From a virus (taxonomy: Duplodnaviria; Caudoviricetes), in the IMG/VR virus record IMGVR_UViG_3300038309_000160, positions 1-63,781 of that record: DNA of 63,781 bases, one strand, 5' to 3'. Under the pieces are notes generated by a model. That model saw only the letters and a program-made list of their open reading frames with translations, made no database searches and was not told where the DNA came from. Positions 17,158 through 39,285 of the stretch are shown here, piece after piece (positions within the stretch are counted from its first letter, which is position 1; each line of letters begins with the position of its first letter). The translations under genes and the position numbers were made by a program.

Positions 17158-18387
17158 ATGAGCTTTAAGAATAAAGGTCCATGGGGAGGTAATGGCCCAT
17201 GGGAATCTAGTAGATCTCCTTGGGGAGTTTCTAGTCAAGTTTTTTCTGGCATTCCTGCAAGCGAATCCGAAGCTCTGGTTGCGTTTTACACGGCCACCGG
17301 TGGCGATTCCTGGACGGATAACACCGGATGGTCTGGCGGTGCGGCTGATGATGCCCTGGGGGTTACGGTTGTTGGCGGGCATGTAACCGCCATCGAGCTA
17401 CCCAACAACAACCTGGACGGGGACGCAGGAACCACGCTAGACCCGCTGGCGGCTGCTTTGGCGGTGCTTGACCTTGGGCAAAACCCCGCCCTTGATGATA
17501 TCGACGTGTCGGCCCTAACTGCCCTCGCAGATATTGACTTTGCCGGTTGCGATTTCGGCTCAAGTGTTGTGGCTGGCATCCTTGCCAACGTAGTCACGGC
17601 GGGGGTTAGCGCCGGAACGCTTGATATAGGAGGCAGCAATTCAAGCCCGTTGCCTGCCGGGGTTACTTCGCTACAAACGCTTGAGGATGACTCGTGGACG
17701 CTGACATATTCAACGGTCGTGCGGGAAAATACCGGCTCGTTCTACGTTGTCACCAAGGGCGGTGAAGCCAAGTTCAGGTCATCCGCAACCGATCTCTCAA
17801 GCCAGATCGGAAAGTATATCGTACTTAAAGACAGCGCCGGGAAGTATGCGGAGGCGTACATTGATGCGGCTGATAGTGCGGAGGCTTCCACATTGTTATT
17901 TTCGGATGACATGACAATAGACAATACAGGTAATTGGTATACAAATGATTGTACACTGACATTCGATACTGATCATTATGTTGTTACATATGTCAATCTG
18001 ACACAGAGTATTATTTTTCAGAATGCCTATAATCAGGAGGAAGGCTTTTTGTATAAGGCTGTTTTTGACGCACGAAACGGCGCGTCAATTATAAATACAG
18101 CGTTTTGGACGGACTATTTCAGCGGTAGATTTGCTCAAGTCGAAGGAATCACAAATACACTTTTCACAAGCATTTCATCCGATTCGACATCAAGATATCA
18201 ACTTCAATCTTTACTTAATTCAGGATCATATTTAGTTTATGGTGTGTGGTTGTATAAATACACCCATCTCGGCACCGACGCCGTAGTCCTAGAATCAACT
18301 CTCGGCGGTAATAACGGAACGTTTACAGATATTGAATCAGGTTTTAACCCGAACAATATAGTTCTTGTGGAGGTGTTTAACCCATGA
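17158..18387 (+). CDS. Putative receptor-binding/tail protein with LRR N-cap and short leucine-rich repeats
   Basis: ESEALVAFYTATGGDSW...GVTVVGGHVTAIELPNNNLDG...LAVLDLGQN...LTALADIDF. Confidence 0.6.
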   Translation: MSFKNKGPWGGNGPWESSRSPWGVSSQVFSGIPASESEALVAFYTATGGDSWTDNTGWSGGAADDALGVTVVGGHVTAIELPNNNLDGDAGTTLDPLAAALAVLDLGQNPALDDIDVSALTALADIDFAGCDFGSSVVAGILANVVTAGVSAGTLDIGGSNSSPLPAGVTSLQTLEDDSWTLTYSTVVRENTGSFYVVTKGGEAKFRSSATDLSSQIGKYIVLKDSAGKYAEAYIDAADSAEASTLLFSDDMTIDNTGNWYTNDCTLTFDTDHYVVTYVNLTQSIIFQNAYNQEEGFLYKAVFDARNGASIINTAFWTDYFSGRFAQVEGITNTLFTSISSDSTSRYQLQSLLNSGSYLVYGVWLYKYTHLGTDAVVLESTLGGNNGTFTDIESGFNPNNIVLVEVFNP

Positions 18388-18746
18388 AAAAAATAATTAT
18401 AGGAGCGATAGTTATGGCAATGTCAACAACGGCAATGGCAAAAGATAAAAATCAGATAACGGTTGAGGCTATCGCAACAAGCGAAAAACCAGCAGCGGTA
18501 CAGGCAAAGGTGGACGCAATCAAAGCCAGTGTTAAATCCAAGGTCGAGGCAAAGACGGAAAAGACGCAGACCGTCCGGGCCGGGGCTGGCGATATGGTTT
18601 TAATCCATGACGGCGCAAAAGTCATCATGGTTAAAGAGCTCGACCCGTTGGAAGAAATGAGCGTACCAGCTACCCGCACCGTGTTTGTTGGGACTGCCGG
18701 AAAGGTCAATGTTGAAATCAAAAAGTTGGGGTTGGCTGAAAAATGA
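18384..18746 (+). CDS. Hypothetical protein with signal peptide
   Basis: MKKIIIGAIVMAMSTTAMA signal; GGAGG RBS. Confidence 0.6.
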   Translation: MKKIIIGAIVMAMSTTAMAKDKNQITVEAIATSEKPAAVQAKVDAIKASVKSKVEAKTEKTQTVRAGAGDMVLIHDGAKVIMVKELDPLEEMSVPATRTVFVGTAGKVNVEIKKLGLAEK

Positions 18747-18868
18747 GAGACCGGGCCGTGCTTTACATACCAGTTTTCTTTTTTGCCTGGGCAGCGATGG
18801 TGATTTTTTTGGTGGGTTGGAGAATATACAATTATTTACGGGGGTATTATGGCACTAAGCGGACTTGA
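18743..18868 (+). CDS. Small single-TM protein (41 aa, below ORF-track cutoff)
   Basis: ATGA overlap with the upstream stop; MRDRAVLYIPVFFFAWAAMVIFLVGWRIY... Confidence 0.35.
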   Translation: MRDRAVLYIPVFFFAWAAMVIFLVGWRIYNYLRGYYGTKRT

Positions 18869-19208
18869 GCAGTTATTGATAGGTGCGGGACTGACGTTAA
18901 CTTCGGGAGCGGTATCGGGGGCCGTGGTTTGGATGAAGACGGCTAAAGACAAAGTTGGCTATGACGAATGTATACGCAACCGGGAAAAGATTGAAGAAGA
19001 GCATCGGATTAGGTGTCCTGAAAATCGACGGGTGCTTTCAGTCGATGACCATGAAAGCATTTGCTCCAAAAATCTGACGCCGATCCACCGGGAAATTAAA
19101 GAGACGAAAATGACGATTGCGCAGATACATGAAAAGATTGACCGGCTGTTGGTAGAACAATCAAAGCACGTCACCTTGAAAGACCTCGAACCATTATTGA
19201 GGCGATAA
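18849..19208 (+). CDS. Holin-like membrane protein
   Basis: One N-terminal TM helix plus coiled coil, directly upstream of the endolysin. Confidence 0.5.
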   Translation: MALSGLEQLLIGAGLTLTSGAVSGAVVWMKTAKDKVGYDECIRNREKIEEEHRIRCPENRRVLSVDDHESICSKNLTPIHREIKETKMTIAQIHEKIDRLLVEQSKHVTLKDLEPLLRR

Positions 19209-19209
19209 A

Positions 19210-19620
19210 ATGTATCATCTTGGAAAAGAAAGCAAGTCTCGGTTATCGACATGCTGCCCCGAACTGAAAAGTTTAGTTGAGCTTGCCATTGCTGTTTCGC
19301 CGATTGACTTTGTCGTTATTGAAGGCCATAGGGATTATGACCGGCAGGAGCAATTATTTTCTGAAGGGAAAACCAAGGTGCATTACCCGTATAGCAAACA
19401 TAATCCCATACCATCAGAAGCGGTCGACCTTGGGCCGTATGTCAATGGGAACTTGTCATGGGATTTTAACCATTGTTGCGTTCTTGCCGGGGCTGTTTTG
19501 GCGGTAGCAGAAATGACCGGGATAAAAATTAGATGGGGTGGCAATTGGGACATGGACGGAGAGCCTATTACTGACCAAGACTTCCAAGATTTAGTGCATT
19601 TTGAAAAAGTTGGCCCGTAA
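19210..19620 (+). CDS. Endolysin, peptidase M15 family (L-Ala-D-Glu peptidase-like)
   Basis: EGHRDYDRQEQLF, SKH...AVD, RWGGNW and DLVHFE motifs. Confidence 0.9.
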   Translation: MYHLGKESKSRLSTCCPELKSLVELAIAVSPIDFVVIEGHRDYDRQEQLFSEGKTKVHYPYSKHNPIPSEAVDLGPYVNGNLSWDFNHCCVLAGAVLAVAEMTGIKIRWGGNWDMDGEPITDQDFQDLVHFEKVGP

Positions 19621-19718
19621 ACCCGCAACCATCAAGGCTTGGCAGGCAGGCTTAACGAGAGGCCCTAGAATCGACGATCTAGTACAAGGTAAGGGTAACA
19701 TAGCCGGGAGATTTGAAC

Positions 19719-19982
19719 ATGAAACGCATTTTTCGTGATATCAAAGAATTTTCAACTGACGGTTGCACTATGTCGCCTGATTTCGATTTTCGTGACTGCT
19801 GCGTTCGGCACGATCTTGACTATTGGCGAGGTGATGTTACTAGGGCCGAGGCCGACAGACGATTAAGGCAGTGCATTAAAGAAAAAGGCTATGTTGTTTT
19901 GCCGTGGATATACTGGGCCGGGGTAAGGCTGTTCGGCGCCGGCCGGTTTAACAGAATTAAAAAACATAGGAGGTTTCCGTGA
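19719..19982 (+). CDS. Small Cys/His-Asp protein (prokaryotic phospholipase A2-like / DUF1353-like)
   Basis: DGCT...CCVRHDLDY...ADRRLRQC...YWAGVRLFG. Confidence 0.6.
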   Translation: MKRIFRDIKEFSTDGCTMSPDFDFRDCCVRHDLDYWRGDVTRAEADRRLRQCIKEKGYVVLPWIYWAGVRLFGAGRFNRIKKHRRFP

Positions 19983-20347
19983 AGAGACTAATTACCGTAT
20001 TGTTTTTGTTAGCGTGTCTGGGATGCGCTCATAACACGTCGTTTGTTGAGCATGCTTACGATACCATCGCAAGCGCGAACTACACAGTAAACGCCATGAT
20101 GGAGGTGGCAGGGCTGGAGCATTGCGCCGGGAATCTGACCGACGAACAGAAAAGCCGAATCATAGCGGCTTATGCTCAATACAAGCTGGCGGCTGACCTG
20201 GCCGATGAAGCCCTGGCTGTCTACGCTGCTACAGAAAAAGAAGATGACAAATTGGCATATGTCCGCGCTTTAGCGGAGCTGCTAGACAACGAGAAAATTA
20301 TCATTGATGTTCTTAACGCGTTTTTGGAGGTCGACCATGACAGATAA
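19979..20347 (+). CDS. Lipoprotein, possible spanin component
   Basis: MKRLITVLFLLACLGC lipobox; located in the lysis cluster. Confidence 0.6.
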   Translation: MKRLITVLFLLACLGCAHNTSFVEHAYDTIASANYTVNAMMEVAGLEHCAGNLTDEQKSRIIAAYAQYKLAADLADEALAVYAATEKEDDKLAYVRALAELLDNEKIIIDVLNAFLEVDHDR

Positions 20348-20519
20348 AGAAAAAGAGCTTGCAATTGACATCATCCGGCTAATTATTCAGGTAGGTGTTC
20401 CGGCGGCGATAAAGGTTATCCAGCAAATCCAGATTACCAACAACCCGACACCCGACGAAATCAGCGCCTTGAGCGACATGCTAAAGCAACCTGAAGATTA
20501 CTTCAATTGCGGAGGATAA
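20337..20519 (+). CDS. Hypothetical protein (60 aa; probable start ATG 20337)
   Basis: GGAGG RBS upstream of 20337. Confidence 0.5.
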   Translation: MTDKEKELAIDIIRLIIQVGVPAAIKVIQQIQITNNPTPDEISALSDMLKQPEDYFNCGG

Positions 20520-20521
20520 CC

Positions 20522-20674
20522 ATGAAAAATTTCATCAAGCAACACCCGAAAAAAATCTTGGCACTGGCTACAGCGGTCGTCGCTGGTGCTATTGGGTATT
20601 TCGTGCCGGAACTACGAAATGAAGCTTATGCCGCGGTCCGAGCCGCTTTGGTTGTGCTATGCGGGGTGTTTTAA
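20522..20674 (+). CDS. Small membrane protein, holin-like (50 aa, not in ORF track)
   Basis: GGAGG RBS; MKNFIKQHPKKILALATAVVAGAIGYFVPELRNEAYAAVRAALVVLCGVF with two hydrophobic segments. Confidence 0.55.
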   Translation: MKNFIKQHPKKILALATAVVAGAIGYFVPELRNEAYAAVRAALVVLCGVF

Positions 20675-20739
20675 ACGCGCCGTTAATATTATGATAATCC
20701 TGATCATATCGCCCTCCTCGTTTTGGTGTTATGGCCTTA

Positions 20740-20835
20740 GGCTAACGCCTGAATTTTGTGGCCGCCCGGCGACTGTGCCAGAACGCTTCCATTGGCCGGT
20801 CTGCCGGTGCGGTCCAGAGCAATGAATTGTTATAT
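20740..20835 (-). mobile_element. Integron attC site of cassette D (96 bp)
   Basis: On the minus strand: R'' ATATAAC, imperfect hairpin (CTGGACCGCACCGGCAGAC / GTCGCCGGGCGGCCA), R' GTTAGCC. The ORF stop lies inside R''. Confidence 0.8.
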
Positions 20836-21009
20836 TTCACCCTGCTTAATTACAAGCACCGGGCCAGCGCTGTTCCTTATTGTTATTCGCAACGCCCGCA
20901 AGTAATCCACTGTCGTTGCTGGTTCTTTAGGGCTCGACCATACCGCAAAAAATAACGGCATAGACTTTGGGAAATAAATCGGTAAAAATTTTTTAAATAT
21001 CCACTTCAT
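20830..21009 (-). CDS. Cassette D ORF, 59-aa hypothetical protein
   Basis: AAGGAGG RBS; MKWIFKKFLP...KQGEI; fills the space between GTTATATTTCACC and its complement GGTGAAATATAAC. Confidence 0.65.
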   Translation of the reverse strand: MKWIFKKFLPIYFPKSMPLFFAVWSSPKEPATTVDYLRALRITIRNSAGPVLVIKQGEI

Positions 21010-21034
21010 AGCCAGCCTCCTTAAAAGGTGAAAT

Positions 21035-21066
21035 ATAACAGTGTAATAAGTGGAAAATTACTCCAT
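21035..21066 (-). repeat. attI-like / degenerate attC element, copy 1
   Basis: ATGGAGTAATTTTCCACTTATTACACTGTTAT; 31/32 identical to 23220-23251; ends at the G/TT that begins cassette D. Confidence 0.7.
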
Positions 21067-21092
21067 ATGTATTTTATCTTGTTCTATTTCCA

Positions 21093-21551
21093 TTATTTTC
21101 CCCGCGGTAACTGCCTGACCGCATCACCGATGGTGCCCTGGAAATACCAGTCTGCGTTTAGGTCGTTCTTGATTTCCTCAACGGTCGGAATGCCACACCA
21201 ATAGTTTGTAGTCACATATTCAACGTACTGATCCCTTGGCCAGCCATCCCTTCCCAGGCGGTCGTGTAAATCAATTAAATGCCATTGCTGGTCATCGTTA
21301 CACCATACCTCATTCCAGCAATGAGCCGCGAAATTGCCAGTTACACCAGCGTAACCGCAACACAATTTGCTTTTGATACTGGCCCGGTGGTACAGGATTT
21401 GTCCTTTTCGCGCCTTGACGCAGCAGTCGCCTTTTGTCGCCCACTCTATCTGCTTGACGTGGGTTTTTTCAGGGATGTAGACCTTGGTGGTTAATATGCT
21501 ACATCCGGTTGCTATTGCGATAATACATGTGATAATAATTGTTCTGATCAT
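21093..21551 (-). CDS. Lipoprotein with transglutaminase-like C-H-D pattern
   Basis: IATGC lipobox; GDCC...AHCWNEV...WHLID. Confidence 0.55.
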   Translation of the reverse strand: MIRTIIITCIIAIATGCSILTTKVYIPEKTHVKQIEWATKGDCCVKARKGQILYHRASIKSKLCCGYAGVTGNFAAHCWNEVWCNDDQQWHLIDLHDRLGRDGWPRDQYVEYVTTNYWCGIPTVEEIKNDLNADWYFQGTIGDAVRQLPRGK

Positions 21552-21654
21552 GATACTCTCCTGTTTAAGATGTTGTGGTCTGCCTCGACCCCTGGTGGTG
21601 CAGGGCCGGGTGGTTGGCTTATATAATGCACTTTCTTTTCTTTGATCTGCCTTT

Positions 21655-22113
21655 TTACTCCCGGCTTTTGTAATATTCAGCCCAGTTCGCGATTTCCATC
21701 AACACCTCCGTCCAGTGCGGTTTCCATTCCGTGTCTTCCGGCTTTTCTGGCCCCGGCTCGTAGTCATGGCGGCAGGTGGCGCACTTGTCGGGCTGCCTTT
21801 GATATCCGCATTCATTCAGGCAAAAGCCGTTAACTCCAGACAAAAGCCCGCCGCATTCAGGGCATGATGTTTTATCCTGTTCTGCCACCCACTCCTCACG
21901 ATCCGGGGCAGATGGGGAGCGGCGGTAAGGCGGAGCAGATTCAGGACCAGTTTTATGGTTTGTGAATACCATATATTCATTGCACGGATGCCATGTACCG
22001 CAATGTCGGCATTGATACTCCCACCACTCCCACGCTTTCGGATTAACCTCTAAGTCCTTTTCATACTCGCACCGGGCGCAGTACCCGGTGACGCCGTGCT
22101 TGCAGTTAGTCAT
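21655..22113 (-). CDS. Multi-CxxC (Zn-ribbon) hypothetical protein (probable start ATG 22113)
   Basis: GGAGG RBS; CARC, CRHC, CPEC and CATC motifs. Confidence 0.6.
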   Translation of the reverse strand: MTNCKHGVTGYCARCEYEKDLEVNPKAWEWWEYQCRHCGTWHPCNEYMVFTNHKTGPESAPPYRRSPSAPDREEWVAEQDKTSCPECGGLLSGVNGFCLNECGYQRQPDKCATCRHDYEPGPEKPEDTEWKPHWTEVLMEIANWAEYYKSRE

Positions 22114-22271
22114 TTGGCCTCCTTTTTCGCCTTGCGGCGTCTGGCTCTCGCCATCTGCTTTTTGGCCCATTTCGTGAATCCCGAATGGGCGTGTGGGCGA
22201 TGATATGGGCAGCGACATTCTTCTCTCCACCATAACCATCGGCCTTCCGCTTTGTTTACTGGCTTTGCCAT
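22110..22271 (-). CDS. Small basic protein (53 aa, not in ORF track)
   Basis: GGAGGG RBS; MAKPVNKAEGRWLWW...ARARRRKAKKEAK; ATGA overlap with the next gene. Confidence 0.5.
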   Translation of the reverse strand: MAKPVNKAEGRWLWWREECRCPYHRPHAHSGFTKWAKKQMARARRRKAKKEAK

Positions 22272-22362
22272 TCATCCCTCCTTCGGCGGGGCGGGGAGCG
22301 GTTGCCAGTGGGTGACACGCTCATCGTCATAGAAGATACATCCGTCAAGCTCAAACCATTCT
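22272..22362 (-). pseudogene. 5'-truncated DUF551-like gene remnant
   Basis: Reads WFELDGCIFYDDERVTHWQPLPAPPKEG*, the typical DUF551 C-terminus, with no start codon; abuts a half attC. Confidence 0.65.
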
Positions 22363-22363
22363 T

Positions 22364-22401
22364 TCGCGTCTTTTTGCGTCAGGTTGATTTGATGGTTATA
22401 A
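22364..22401 (-). mobile_element. Truncated attC of cassette C (left arm only)
   Basis: TTATAAC-CATCA-AATCAACCTGACGCAAAAAGACGCG on the minus strand; the right arm and R' are missing. Confidence 0.6.
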
Positions 22402-22575
22402 TTCTCTTACAAGTACATCATGAACCTTATTACACTTCACGCATTTTCTTTTTTGACGCAATTCAACATATGGGACCTCTCGCCCTTGTGATGCTTTCGG
22501 TGCGAGTCTTCCTAGAATTTGGATTCCACGCTCTTCGTATTGTTCCCATTTTGACCATTTATGGAAGATGCACAT
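22396..22575 (-). CDS. Cassette C ORF, 59-aa Cys/His protein (DUF1660-like pattern)
   Basis: AGGAG RBS; MCIFHKWSKW...RKCVKCNKV; bounded by GTTATAATT and AATTATAAC. Confidence 0.7.
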   Translation of the reverse strand: MCIFHKWSKWEQYEERGIQILGRLAPKASQGREVPYVELRQKRKCVKCNKVHDVLVREL

Positions 22576-22588
22576 TTTTGTCTCCTAA

Positions 22589-22717
22589 TTATAACGTTAA
22601 AAATTGTGGGGCTGGCAGGGTAGCGGCCAACTTCGATTACACCTACTCTCAACCGCTCCCATGCCCACTTGCTTAAAAGCAAGACCCCGCCAGTCCCACA
22701 CCAACGACTTGTTATAA
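22589..22717 (-). mobile_element. Integron attC site of cassette B (129 bp)
   Basis: TTATAAC-AAGTC-GTTGGTGTGGGACTGGCGGGGT ... ACCCTGCCAGCCCCACAATTTTTAAC-GTTATAA, with about 3 unpaired bases on one arm. Confidence 0.85.
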
Positions 22718-22936
22718 ATCATATTCCTGGTTAAATCGAAAATTATACCATTCCAACAGGATTGCCCTTATTACCTGGTGGTGTTCTTCTGCCTCGATTT
22801 TAACTTTATCCATAAACCAGTTTTCGATTAGCCCCATTGGAACTACATGAACAGATTCGGTAACCGGGTCTGTAAAAATCATCCACTGGCCATCTTCTTT
22901 TTTTGCATACTCTGTTATATTAATTACGTCAGCCAT
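22712..22936 (-). CDS. Cassette B ORF, 74-aa hypothetical protein
   Basis: GAGG RBS; MADVINITEY...; stop TAA inside R''; bounded by GTTATAAATC and GATTTATAAC. Confidence 0.7.
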   Translation of the reverse strand: MADVINITEYAKKEDGQWMIFTDPVTESVHVVPMGLIENWFMDKVKIEAEEHHQVIRAILLEWYNFRFNQEYDL

Positions 22937-22952
22937 AATCACCTCTTTTGAT

Positions 22953-23013
22953 TTATAACGAAAAGTTCACCCGCGCCGCGAAGCGGGGTCGGATGTGAAA
23001 CGCCTTGTTATCT
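22953..23013 (-). mobile_element. Integron attC site of cassette A (61 bp)
   Basis: AGATAAC-AAGGC-GTTTCACATCCGACCCCGCTTCGCGGCGCGGGTGAAC-TTTTC-GTTATAA. Confidence 0.85.
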
Positions 23014-23015
23014 GT

Positions 23016-23198
23016 TTACTGATCACAAGGCCAAACAAAAGCCTCGGCTCGACAAGTAAAAACCGCCCAAGCGTGTTTGACGCGATCCATGAACGACATG
23101 CACTCCCGTCGATAGTTTAGCGGACGGGCAGGAACCCATTTGCCATCGATACAGGTTTGAGGTAGATTTTTGTCTTGAAGATCAATCAATTTCCACAT
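23016..23198 (-). CDS. Cassette A ORF, 60-aa hypothetical protein
   Basis: GGAG RBS; GKWVPARP...AWAVFTCRAEAFVWP; bounded by GTTATCTGT and ACAGATAAC. Confidence 0.7.
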   Translation of the reverse strand: MWKLIDLQDKNLPQTCIDGKWVPARPLNYRRECMSFMDRVKHAWAVFTCRAEAFVWPCDQ

Positions 23199-23219
23199 TT
23201 TCTTTCTCCAATATTACAG

Positions 23220-23251
23220 ATAACAGTGTAATAAGTGGAAAATTACGCCAT
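23220..23251 (-). repeat. attI-like / degenerate attC element, copy 2
   Basis: ATGGCGTAATTTTCCACTTATTACACTGTTAT; ends at the G/TT that begins cassette A. Confidence 0.7.
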
Positions 23252-23758
23252 CACTTTTTTGACCAGCTCCAGCAGCCGGTCTATAGCGTCTAAAATGTCC
23301 TGTTTTGTGTAGCTATTTTCCGTTGTGTTTTCAATATCTTCCGGCGTTTCCGGCTCTGAGATGTCGCTTGGAGTGTCGTTTTCTGTCGAAGCTGCTATCG
23401 GCTTGAAGTGGGCGACCAGGTATGAGAGCGGAGATTTGATTTTGGTATTTCCAATTGTTTTGAACAGAGTAATTACGACATCGCCTGTAGTATTAAAAGG
23501 GTATTCCATCTCTAGAAAATCATCCGGCGAATTGCTGGACCTATACCACGCTTCCCAATGTCTAAACACATACCCTTCTGCCGGGGTTGCATTGACCGTG
23601 TATGACATGGCATCATGATGTAAAAACGGATAACCCGGACTTGGATTGTACCATTCTCCGAAATCGTCACTCTTTATATGTCCTGCTCCAAACGGCTCAA
23701 CTGCCGTTGCAAGTCCCCACTGGCCTCATGTAAATTTCGGTAGTTTAATGTCTGCCAT
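23243..23758 (-). pseudogene. InlB B-repeat-like protein with an in-frame TGA at codon 11 (the ORF track reports only 23243-23608)
   Basis: MADIKLPKFT*GQWGLATAVEPFGAGHI...VNATPAEGYVFRHW...AHFKP all lie in one frame. Confidence 0.45.
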
Positions 23759-23781: not shown

Positions 23782-23824
23782 ATTTTGCATGGGATTATCT
23801 TATCTCAATAATCCCATGCAAAAT
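23782..23824. terminator. Perfect 17-bp stem hairpin, probable terminator ending the replication operon
   Basis: ATTTTGCATGGGATTAT-N9-ATAATCCCATGCAAAAT, with T/A runs on both sides. Confidence 0.7.
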
Positions 23825-37057: not shown

Positions 37058-37855
37058 TCAAGATGGAGTAACAGTATTTGGTTGTTTAATAACTGTCTTG
37101 CCTTCAAGATAAGCCTTGACAAGCTCAGATAAGGTAATGTCTTCAATCTTGTCCATATCAAAAACTCTCGTTTTTGCCTCAAAATTCAGCTTCTCTGTAA
37201 AATAGATTTGCCTCTTTGATCCTTTGCTGACCAGAAGATAGGCTTCATCAAAATCTGTAGCAAGTAATTGTCTGAACTGGCCATTTACAGCTGGATATCT
37301 TGCAACAACTTCTTGATCTTTATTCATTAAAACGTGAAGATGAACTGTTACAGCTACAGCACAAGGCAACTCTTGCAAAGAAGATGTAAGAGTTGTCATC
37401 CATTGTAAAAGCTGTCCCCAGTGTGCTGGAGCCATACCGAGTTTCATATCAATCTTCTTGCCAATACCACTTGGAGTTACTCCGGCTTTCTTGGCAATTT
37501 CTTTAATAGCCTTTTGATTCGCGTTAGTTAGGGAGTCAAGAACAAGTAATCCTTGATTTTCAAGAAGCCAATTAAAAAGACCATTTTTTTCATCTTCCTG
37601 GAATTGCTTCCAGAAATCTGAAAATTCAATAGAATTTGAAGAGAAATTATCTATTGTAATGTCAGTTCGATTTCCCATTATCTTTTCAATTGTTTTTTCA
37701 CCACCTTTGTCAAAGAGATAATAATGGATAGGTCCCTGATCATAGGTAGCTGTGAAATGAGTTTTGCCACTACCAGAATTTCCTGTAAGCAAAAATTTAA
37801 GATCAAACTTTCTTTGTTTTGCTGATAACTTTGTTTTGTTCGGAGGAGTTGTCAT
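37058..37855 (-). CDS. AAA_24 / Sak4-like recombination ATPase
   Basis: GNSGSGKT Walker A, LVLDSLT Walker B; SSB and exonuclease neighbours. Confidence 0.75.
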   Translation of the reverse strand: MTTPPNKTKLSAKQRKFDLKFLLTGNSGSGKTHFTATYDQGPIHYYLFDKGGEKTIEKIMGNRTDITIDNFSSNSIEFSDFWKQFQEDEKNGLFNWLLENQGLLVLDSLTNANQKAIKEIAKKAGVTPSGIGKKIDMKLGMAPAHWGQLLQWMTTLTSSLQELPCAVAVTVHLHVLMNKDQEVVARYPAVNGQFRQLLATDFDEAYLLVSKGSKRQIYFTEKLNFEAKTRVFDMDKIEDITLSELVKAYLEGKTVIKQPNTVTPS

Positions 37856-38313: not shown

Positions 38314-39285
38314 TTAATTTGATAATCTTTTCTTTGTTTCTTCTTCATGCTCTTCAGGATTCCATTCTTTAAAATGAAATCCTTGAGGTGCTTTGTTTAA
38401 CCATAACAATGGATTGTTACGAAGTCTACATAAATCATAATAAGCGCAGGTTGTCATAAATGTAGTACATGAATATCCAGGGCTGCGTGGAAATGATTTA
38501 AGAATATCAGATCTATCGAGACATTTCATCTTATCTTCTTCAAGCAAGATTAAGTTTTCTTTAATTTGCTTAATATAAAAAACAAGGTTAGCTAAAAAAT
38601 GTTCAATAGCTGCCGAGCGTTTGTTTATTGTAATTGGTTGAAAATCAATCTTGGTTTTTTGACACAAAGCTACACGATAAGTAATAGATGGAATCTTATC
38701 ATAGAAAAGACGTCCAGCAGTTAAGTAGCCATCAGTTTGAAAGGACATCTCGTATGTTTGTGGGGAAGTTTTATATATTGCCTTGGCTGTTTTATGATCG
38801 ATAATTTCAATGCCATCACCGTTTGAAAGAATCAAATCTAATCGACCAATATAATCAGGCAAGTTTTTTTCATTTGTTATAGTAGATAAATCAATTGCAA
38901 AAGGAGCTTCTACAGCTATAATTTTACGGTCATTTGTATCTAAAGAAAGGAAACGATCCCAGTATGCTTTGTACATATTAGCAGCATGTCCAGGGGATTT
39001 AGGAAAAATAAGATCTTCATCTTTCCAGAAAGGTTCACCATCAAGTTTCCATAGCGCATTGAATGCTTTGATAGAAATAATTGTGCAATCAACAGATGAT
39101 GTGTGTGGATTTTCCATTAGGTGTTGATATGTAGCCTCAAGACCATAATGCCAGCAGGCACCGAAAACTAAATGAATACTTTGCCCTGCTGGACGAAGAT
39201 TCATTATGTATTGGAATAAAAATTCACGAGGACAACTTAAATAGGTGCTTAATGAACTGTAATCAATCTTTTTATTATAATCCAT
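38314..39285 (-). CDS. PD-(D/E)XK (RecB/Cas4-like) exonuclease
   Basis: YSSLSTYLSCP, FGACWH, GRLDLI...IIDHKT and a C-terminal C...CAYYDLC. Confidence 0.85.
   Translation of the reverse strand: MDYNKKIDYSSLSTYLSCPREFLFQYIMNLRPAGQSIHLVFGACWHYGLEATYQHLMENPHTSSVDCTIISIKAFNALWKLDGEPFWKDEDLIFPKSPGHAANMYKAYWDRFLSLDTNDRKIIAVEAPFAIDLSTITNEKNLPDYIGRLDLILSNGDGIEIIDHKTAKAIYKTSPQTYEMSFQTDGYLTAGRLFYDKIPSITYRVALCQKTKIDFQPITINKRSAAIEHFLANLVFYIKQIKENLILLEEDKMKCLDRSDILKSFPRSPGYSCTTFMTTCAYYDLCRLRNNPLLWLNKAPQGFHFKEWNPEEHEEETKKRLSN

Follow-up and report, generated by a model that had tools for sequence, protein, structure and literature searches.

Integron-type gene cassettes headed by a predicted attI core in a complete phage genome that lacks an integrase

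Cassette units on the minus strand

The virus genome IMGVR_UViG_3300038309_000160 (Duplodnaviria; Caudoviricetes), whose 63,781 nucleotides (nt) make up the window analysed here, carries two integrase-less arrays of integron-type gene cassettes on its minus strand. The arrays have the architecture attI core-A-B-C, with C truncated, and attI core-D. Cassette A (22959..23223) contains ORF A (open reading frame; 23198..23016, 60 aa, phrog_21988) and a 61-nt hairpin, attC_A (23013..22953); the unit starts at G23224 with GTTATCTGT, which is complementary to its own end ACAGATAAC finishing at 23007. Cassette B (22595..22958) has the same plan, with ORF B (22936..22712, 74 aa from its ATG, an ORFan), a 129-nt attC_B (22717..22589), and complementary start (G22959, GTTATAAATC) and end (GATTTATAAC, finishing at 22711). 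Cassette C (22395..22594) encodes the 59-residue ORF C (22575..22396) and begins at G22595 with GTTATAATT, complementary to its end AATTATAAC finishing at 22395, but its attC is reduced to the R'' box (22401..22395); there is no second attC half-site for this unit and neither of the covariance models described below matches there. Adjoining the half-site, on the same strand, is a 5'-truncated DUF551 gene fragment (22272..22406), recognised from its translation and a PF04448 match of 29.3 bits (cut-off 22) that covers only profile positions 43-68 of 68. Because the attC of unit C is limited to R'' and the neighbouring fragment has no start codon, we conclude that a deletion joined the two. Cassette D (20746..21038) lies apart, with ORF D (21009..20830, 59 aa, an ORFan) and a 96-nt attC_D (20835..20740); its start (G21039, GTTATATTTCACC) is complementary to its end (GGTGAAATATAAC), R' is GTTAGCC (20746..20740), and a perfect 14-nt inverted repeat connects the two ends of the cassette.

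A preliminary description of this DNA, made from the sequence alone, had listed the three ORFs of 60, 74 and 59 aa with their G/TT starts complementary to their own ends, and all of these coordinates and motifs were reproduced. It had also placed two stop codons inside R'' boxes, as is the case for B and C and likewise for D. Cassette D itself was missing from that list, as was a 27-nt repeat that lies ahead of A and D.

The stretch over which a unit start is complementary to its own R'' is 9 nt in A, 10-11 nt in B, 9 nt in C and 13-14 nt in D, compared with 7-8 nt in the genuine cassettes of a plasmid locus (L002). Pairs of GTT and AAC lying 150-450 nt apart, with at least six further complementary bases, occur seven times in the whole genome, compared with 2.1 on average and at most 5 in Markov controls (n=30), and four of the seven are the contiguous units A-D (extensions of 6, 8, 6 and 10 nt). 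From attC_A to attC_B is 236 nt, with attC_D another 1.75 kb on, and no match to TIGR02249 or PF00589 occurs genome-wide, so that at least two attC sites lie within 3-4 kb with no integron integrase. This is the composition of a CALIN (clustered attC sites with no accompanying integron integrase), described in the available text of Qi et al. (PMC9892861) as at least two attC sites close together with no intI nearby. The arrays are not complete integrons, in that a six-frame search finds no intI beside the attI and only the terminal 16 nt of an attI plus GTT is present.

Identity of the hairpins

A blastn search of plasmids with attC_A returned 2585 records, and among the matches listed are the ends of aadA13, aadA1 and qacL cassettes; the two plasmid loci that were checked (L001 and L002) are both cassette arrays adjoining intI. 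We built two home-made covariance models of attC. The first, R1, was derived from an alignment of 11 genuine attCs of L001 and L002 only; its structure has an R stem of 7 bp and an L stem of 3+6 bp that includes one bulge, and it was run on both strands of the window with filters off. Its score for attC_A is 41.9 bits (E 1.9e-8) and that for attC_D 22 bits (E 0.0033), with nothing else in the window at E<1; attC_B scores only 9.5 bits (E 6.6), yet the match falls exactly at its predicted ends. For the second model, R2, we used 24 attCs detected by R1 in bacterial integron loci; it scores attC_A at 40.6 bits (E 3.8e-8), attC_B at 17.9 bits (E 0.041) and attC_D at 16.4 bits (E 0.098). These three are the top three of 16 R2 matches in the window, the next best having an E value of 1.9. 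In other viral loci (L003-L021, 315,933 nt in all) neither model has a match at E<=1, and R1 recovers a 128-nt attC of L002 on which it was not trained at 37.8 bits.

The hairpins also have the expected internal organisation. A, B and D all have AAC and GTT at their two ends, and pairing of the R boxes is seen in the predicted folds; z scores for folding of the bottom strand as DNA are -1.9 for A, -4.5 for B (-22.8 kcal/mol) and -3.5 for D, with -4.5 for an aadA1 control. In the covariance-model alignments all three have 5-nt spacers and a bulged base at the bulge column of the model, where the training set has C, G or T. The consensus for attC R boxes is RYYYAAC/GTTRRRY, and the phage boxes AGATAAC, TTATAAC and ATATAAC agree with it only in part. 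Units A, B and D are integron cassettes of canonical form, each with one short ORF, an attC with inverse cores, 5-nt spacers and a bulged L box, and G|TT boundaries. The reading of the 61-nt and 129-nt hairpins as attC sites and of the units as integron cassettes, put forward in the preliminary description together with a proposal to search with an attC covariance model, is therefore upheld by the homology of attC_A, the matches of both models at the predicted coordinates of A and B, the additional match at D, and the G|TT boundaries.

The repeat at the head of each array

Immediately ahead of cassettes A and D are two exact copies of a 27-nt repeat (0 expected by chance), with 88% identity over 41 nt. 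Copy 1 spans 23220..23246 on the minus strand, where its 16-nt core TTCCACTTATTACACT occupies 23240..23225 and the G|TT crossover falls between 23224 and 23223; copy 2 spans 21035..21061 on the same strand, with the core at 21055..21040 and the crossover between 21039 and 21038. We used the last 19 nt of the repeat (the core plus GTT) for exact-match scans, which means that the perfect conservation of the core in the loci found is partly a matter of ascertainment.

In bacterial genomes the 19-mer is present at 29 loci (L029-L057), mostly in metagenome-assembled genomes (MAGs) of Desulfobacterota (Syntrophales, Desulfobulbaceae, Desulfocapsa and Desulfurivibrio) and also of Nitrospirota, with a few labelled Bacteroidetes, Bacillota or Cloacimonadota. 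At these loci it forms the right end of a conserved region of ~110 nt that contains an 11-12-nt box (AATAAGTGGAAA / TTCCACTTATT) four times, its orientation alternating, and the sequence past G|TT varies from locus to locus. A divergent IntI gene or fragment is located upstream in 14 of the 29 loci and is full length in eight of these, at ~130-225 nt from the motif in the seven cases measured; a further four loci have less than 200 nt of sequence upstream of the motif. All four IntI genes that were scored on TIGR02249 reach 416-444 bits (cut-off 265). Matches to attC (E<=0.1) occur in 13 of the 29 loci, with all 28 on the strand of the motif and 27 downstream of it. Since the 19-mer ends a conserved region, with IntI upstream, attCs downstream and variable sequence after G|TT, we interpret it as the crossover end of the attI of an integron family. 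In both window copies the core TTCCACTTATTACACT is likewise followed by G|TT and a variable cassette, and on this comparison the 16 nt plus GTT ahead of each phage array is identified as the attI core of a chromosomal integron family of anaerobic-sediment bacteria. No published description of this bacterial attI was found, and in a literature text search the core is absent from integron papers and appears only in two Staphylococcus pseudintermedius isolate papers unrelated to integrons. A stretch of ~20 nt upstream of the phage core that resembled the bacterial attI was set aside, its scores not exceeding those of shuffled controls.

Several features of the bacterial loci are recorded here. 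In the bacterial attI, the two final boxes with their 5-nt spacers could form an attC-like fold in which AAT substitutes for AAC. The single attC upstream of the motif (L036, 5686-5745) is in a locus without IntI, which suggests that this array has been rearranged. Five loci (L029, L039, L040, L044 and L052) have nearly identical attI regions and IntI genes that are 84-86% identical, while their MAGs are labelled delta proteobacterium, Bacteroidetes, Syntrophaceae, Bacillota and Cloacimonadota; this would reflect either a mobile integron or binning errors.

The 19-mer is also present in five other IMG/VR contigs. Each of these has a different unit after G|TT, start and end of the unit being complementary, and in four of the five an attC lies right behind that unit. 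Genes nearby include RecT-like, Sak4-like and primase genes, the Sak4-like genes lying near the attI cores of L023 and L025 and the RecT-like gene near that of L024. Two of the five records encode tyrosine recombinases, but these are not IntI, scoring 52 and 48 bits where the integron-integrase model has a cut-off of 265. Five of the seven viral first cassettes start with GTTAT, compared with four of 28 bacterial ones, although the two window copies are not independent; this hints that the pool of R boxes could be more AT-rich in phages.

Assembly support and variation at attI copy 2

The stretch is present in three marine-sediment runs of one study (X1, the probable source, X2 and X3) and in part in a landfill run of a second study (X4, 17 of 30 bins covered), the run data being contigs and unitigs rather than reads. 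A 13,544-nt X2 contig spans 16500-21610 with zero mismatches, a 5,376-nt X1 contig spans 21036-24500, a 26,809-nt X2 contig spans 23135-24500, and X3 contigs cross both borders of the island described below, such that each GC border and each attI copy is spanned by contigs.

Unitigs of X1 and X3 stop at 21036-21065, at attI copy 2. This 30-mer consists of GTTA, the core and ten nt further upstream, among them one base that differs from copy 1. The assemblies have one loose end here, the same in X1 and X3, with a different sequence after the GTTA of copy 2, and it follows that the D form is accompanied by a variant that has other sequence at attI copy 2. The alternative opens as a cassette would, with GTTAGG and then a run resembling a ribosome-binding site; a 26-nt piece of it is absent from IMG/VR. 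In the landfill run the flank is shared by a 163-nt relative (nine differences) as far as GC plus the R' of attC_D, beyond which the relative diverges.

A 301-nt X1 contig matches 20760-20833, the 3' part of attC_D, with four differences in 74 nt and diverges inside R'', which points to a related attC on what is probably a different cassette in the same sample. Contig depths of 97.8 on the D side and 153.4 across the branch might be read as a sizeable minority variant and were left unused, contig depth being an unreliable measure. The occurrence of the exact ORF D protein in two contigs, compared with seven for A, B and C, was rejected as a sign that D is absent elsewhere, the source record of the window having no gene call for D.

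Phage genome and recombinase searches

The genome ends in an exact 99-nt terminal repeat and has a CheckV completeness of 100%. It encodes a DNA polymerase, primase, helicase, NAD ligase, ThyX, virion proteins, and a Sak4-like single-stranded DNA annealing protein and an exonuclease (37058-37855 and 38314-39285). Six-frame searches of the complete genome give no match to the tyrosine recombinase family PF00589 at E<=1 and none to the integron integrase TIGR02249 or the serine recombinase PF00239, the IntI of L002 serving as a positive control for TIGR02249 at 399.6 bits. The phage has no integrase, and the failure of the preliminary description to recognise a tyrosine recombinase is thus borne out in a genome that is complete. 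No match to 20500-23700 was found by blastn in 50,697 phage records. Relatives were collected through ThyX (16 loci, 32-60% identity), and with no attC in any of them by covariance-model search there is no close relative for a cassette-by-cassette comparison.

Cassette genes

ORF A belongs to phrog_21988 (E 2.4e-14) and has three viral relatives with 49-54% identity, in two of which the next gene abuts. One relative (L005, 1985-2330) lies inside a 21-nt imperfect inverted repeat with a GTTAG start and a CTAAC end and no match to the attC models. A search of 5.8 billion clusters yields no relative of ORFs B and D. Five relatives were found for ORF C (50-72% identity), and a metagenome scan for further ones gave 36 loci, in seven of which an attC adjoins the gene, three in cassette orientation (L059, L062 and L063) and four on the other strand. 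The closest other relatives (L058, L060 and L061) are ordinary, tightly packed genes. At L059 (1427-1779) the relative is within a cassette array in which ATT/AAT replaces GTT/AAC, the unit starting with ATTATAAATCT and ending with AGATTTATAAT. The cargo had been thought to include a DUF1660-like protein, and this label for ORF C is unsupported as it has no Pfam match even at E<=10.

It had also been suggested that these genes belong to a cassette pool circulating among phages and that their homologues be inspected for attC. Membership of ORF A in a phage family favours such a pool; that its three viral homologues have no attC detectable by the covariance models does not. Relatives of ORF C are both true cassettes and ordinary genes, and B and D are ORFans. 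When 15 proteins of the surrounding island were compared by tblastn with all loci collected, only relatives of ORF A were found, and the search detected none of the phage cassettes in the collected bacterial arrays.

The island around the arrays

Both arrays lie in an island defined by composition (17250..23750, no strand assigned), 6.5 kb long, which also contains a tail-fibre-like C-terminus and lysis genes, among them an endolysin (phrog_465). Its GC content is ~41-50% in 1-kb windows compared with ~28-42% elsewhere and ~31% for the backbone, and changes sharply at ~17250 and ~23700. The left border is inside ORF 17158-18387, whose first ~90 nt (~30 N-terminal codons) have backbone composition and within which GC rises from ~35% to 55-62%. 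This ORF looks like a tail fibre with a swapped receptor-binding end, which may have been gained along with the lysis genes. Ahead of the island on the minus strand stands a strong terminator-like hairpin (23824..23782). A transglutaminase-like gene in the island (21093-21551) has a relative of at least 90% identity on a 44.7-kb contig, where it is annotated as part of a Thermotogota MAG, and a further one on a contig of 60 kb; this is a possible lead to a host or relative.

How the arrays may have arisen

It is on balance probable that the integrase of a host integron acts in trans on the phage-borne sites. Infection of a host carrying such an integron would expose the phage DNA to IntI, which could insert circular cassettes at the attI core (attI x attC) and excise or reshuffle those already there (attC x attC). 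The phage would in this way sample small accessory genes, read through from an early or middle operon, and may return cassettes to bacterial integrons; the attC of cassette C would have been removed later by the deletion that also took the 5' part of the DUF551 gene. We base this on three observations, namely that homology to attI ends at one place in seven viral copies, that the first cassettes differ, and that the copy-2 junction is polymorphic. The preliminary description had already proposed that the host integrase is used in trans, and this part is strengthened by the identity of the core with that of a bacterial family and by the branch point at the junction in natural populations, but the action of IntI is something that we still infer.

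Several of the results weigh against this view. No recombination event is seen in the contig data. The phage core is much shorter than the bacterial attI, the other three boxes are absent, and local alignment upstream of the core gives no attI similarity above shuffled controls; the conservation of the core is in part a product of exact-match scanning. Taken singly, attC_B and attC_D have only modest covariance-model scores, and attCs are not detectable at the three viral relatives of ORF A or in the 16 ThyX-based relatives. The backbone GC of ~31% is unlike that of the mostly Desulfobacterota MAGs that have this attI. Finally, the Sak4-like annealing protein and exonuclease of the phage mean that short-homology recombination could yield the same patterns.

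The most serious alternative is one that we consider unlikely. It holds that a piece of a bacterial integron (the end of an attI with its cassettes), or a piece of another phage carrying it, was gained by illegitimate or short-homology recombination, perhaps aided by the Sak4-like protein and exonuclease of the phage, then duplicated inside the phage, and is now decaying without any IntI action, the variants being the product of ordinary mosaicism among phages, for which the conserved core and the attC stems provide patches of homology. The attI is indeed cut to its last 16 nt and the attC of cassette C is cut off beside a truncated gene; the 6.5-kb island in which the arrays sit is foreign in composition and also contains lysis genes and a swapped tail-fibre end; annealing proteins are encoded by the window phage (which has an exonuclease as well) and in L023, L024 and L025; and the 27 identical nt of the two copies, with 88% identity over 41 nt, suggest an internal duplication. 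Random capture would be expected to give variable break points, however, and the attI homology ends at the same place in all seven viral copies while the flanks differ. All seven also have a different cassette exactly at G|TT, and the branch in the X1 and X3 graphs is at the GTTA of copy 2 with a flank specific to copy 2. Three attCs are intact, although functionless hairpins would be expected to be lost.

Far less probable is a reading that does without integrons, which takes the hairpins for terminators or regulatory stem-loops and the repeat for a phage promoter. In T4-type phages, promoter/stem-loop modules are said to shuffle small genes, and here too hairpins separate small ORFs in a variable phage region and the 27-nt repeat is directly upstream of two of them. 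Such modules have a promoter at each unit start, whereas a simple consensus scan found no sigma-70-like site at 23224, 22959, 22595 or 21039 on the minus strand. Moreover, attC_A is homologous to attCs of the aadA type, models of bacterial attCs find A, B and D at their exact ends, and the repeat is an attI core beside true IntI genes.

Least probable of all is that a bacterial integron fragment was misjoined into a phage contig during assembly, as the metagenomic origin of the data and the sharp GC jumps at ~17250 and ~23700 might suggest, given that contigs of X1, X2 and X3, the latter two from further samples of the same study, bridge the borders and the arrays, and that the left jump falls within one ORF whose N-terminus has backbone composition.

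Returning to IntI acting in trans, we put forward tentatively that phages of anaerobic sediments may keep a minimal attI as a 'landing pad', consisting of one IntI-binding box and the crossover, onto which cassettes could be loaded by the integron integrase of any host. Selection for the smallest attI that still functions would then account for the sharp left edge of the core, which is common to seven viral copies. If so, this would be an integrase-free integron platform, and phages would be clients and couriers of the bacterial cassette pool. If IntI does act on these sites, a virus would be exploiting a recombination system of its host to diversify its accessory genes, and infection would provide a concrete route for cassettes between bacterial lineages. 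The exact attI match offers a testable host link for an uncultivated phage, namely to bacteria with this IntI and attI, and the core is a short, defined substrate for recombination assays.

Comparison with known systems

Integrons are seen as bacterial devices, and phage-borne attC clusters have been described only recently and in few genomes. Among the attCs of class 1 integrons, those of aadA and qacL cassettes (L001 and L002) have the same layout as attC_A (R'', a 5-nt spacer, L'' with one bulge, loop, L', spacer and R') and the same loop core, CCGCTTCGCGGCGCGG. They differ in that the R boxes of attC_A are AT-rich (AGATAAC/GTTATAA) and depart from RYYYAAC/GTTRRRY, in that the phage has A, and not G, as its bulged base on the bottom strand, and in that the phage has no resistance gene. 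The chromosomal integrons of Desulfobacterota and Nitrospirota (L029-L057) have an attI core and G|TT junction identical to those of the phage, and attCs of the type captured by R2; they possess IntI and an attI of ~110 nt with four boxes, whereas the phage has one box and no IntI.

Cassettes outside complete integrons have precedents. The accessible text of a preprint (10.1101/2022.09.11.507474) states that IntI can insert cassettes at non-att genomic sites and describes SALINs and attG sites, where IntI places cassettes outside a complete integron to give isolated cassettes or small integrase-less clusters. As described there, attG differs from attI in sequence and structure; the phage target is the attI core itself. 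In the Shewanella cryptic prophage M16-3, according to the part of Qi et al. (PMC9892861) on which we draw, a Shewanella-type attI heads a CALIN, so that, as in the window phage, an attI of host type opens an integrase-less array in a phage-derived element. That element resides in the host chromosome and also holds a complete integron with an intact IntI. The window genome, by comparison, is complete, terminally redundant and free of recombinases, and has only 16 nt plus GTT of an attI, twice.

The preliminary description implied that such arrays were new to phages, and this does not stand. Clusters of attC sites without an integrase, open to recombination by IntI1, have already been published for virulent phages: the accessible text of Qi et al. 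(2023, PMC9892861) reports 17 CALINs in 10,705 NCBI phage genomes and recombination of five of six virulent-phage attCs with attI1 by IntI1, and its authors propose cassette exchange between phages and bacterial integrons. Those phages resemble the window phage in having attC-flanked cassettes without intI. Their survey, as set out in that text, is of NCBI phage genomes and not of uncultivated viral contigs. By comparison with what it describes, the window arrays are each headed by an attI core traceable to a specific bacterial integron family, the same core is followed by different first cassettes in five other viral contigs, and the junction is polymorphic in natural samples. What is new here is a minimal attI core, present twice in a complete phage genome that has no integrase and matching a defined bacterial integron family exactly, together with the recurrence of this core in five other viral contigs and natural polymorphism at its junction.

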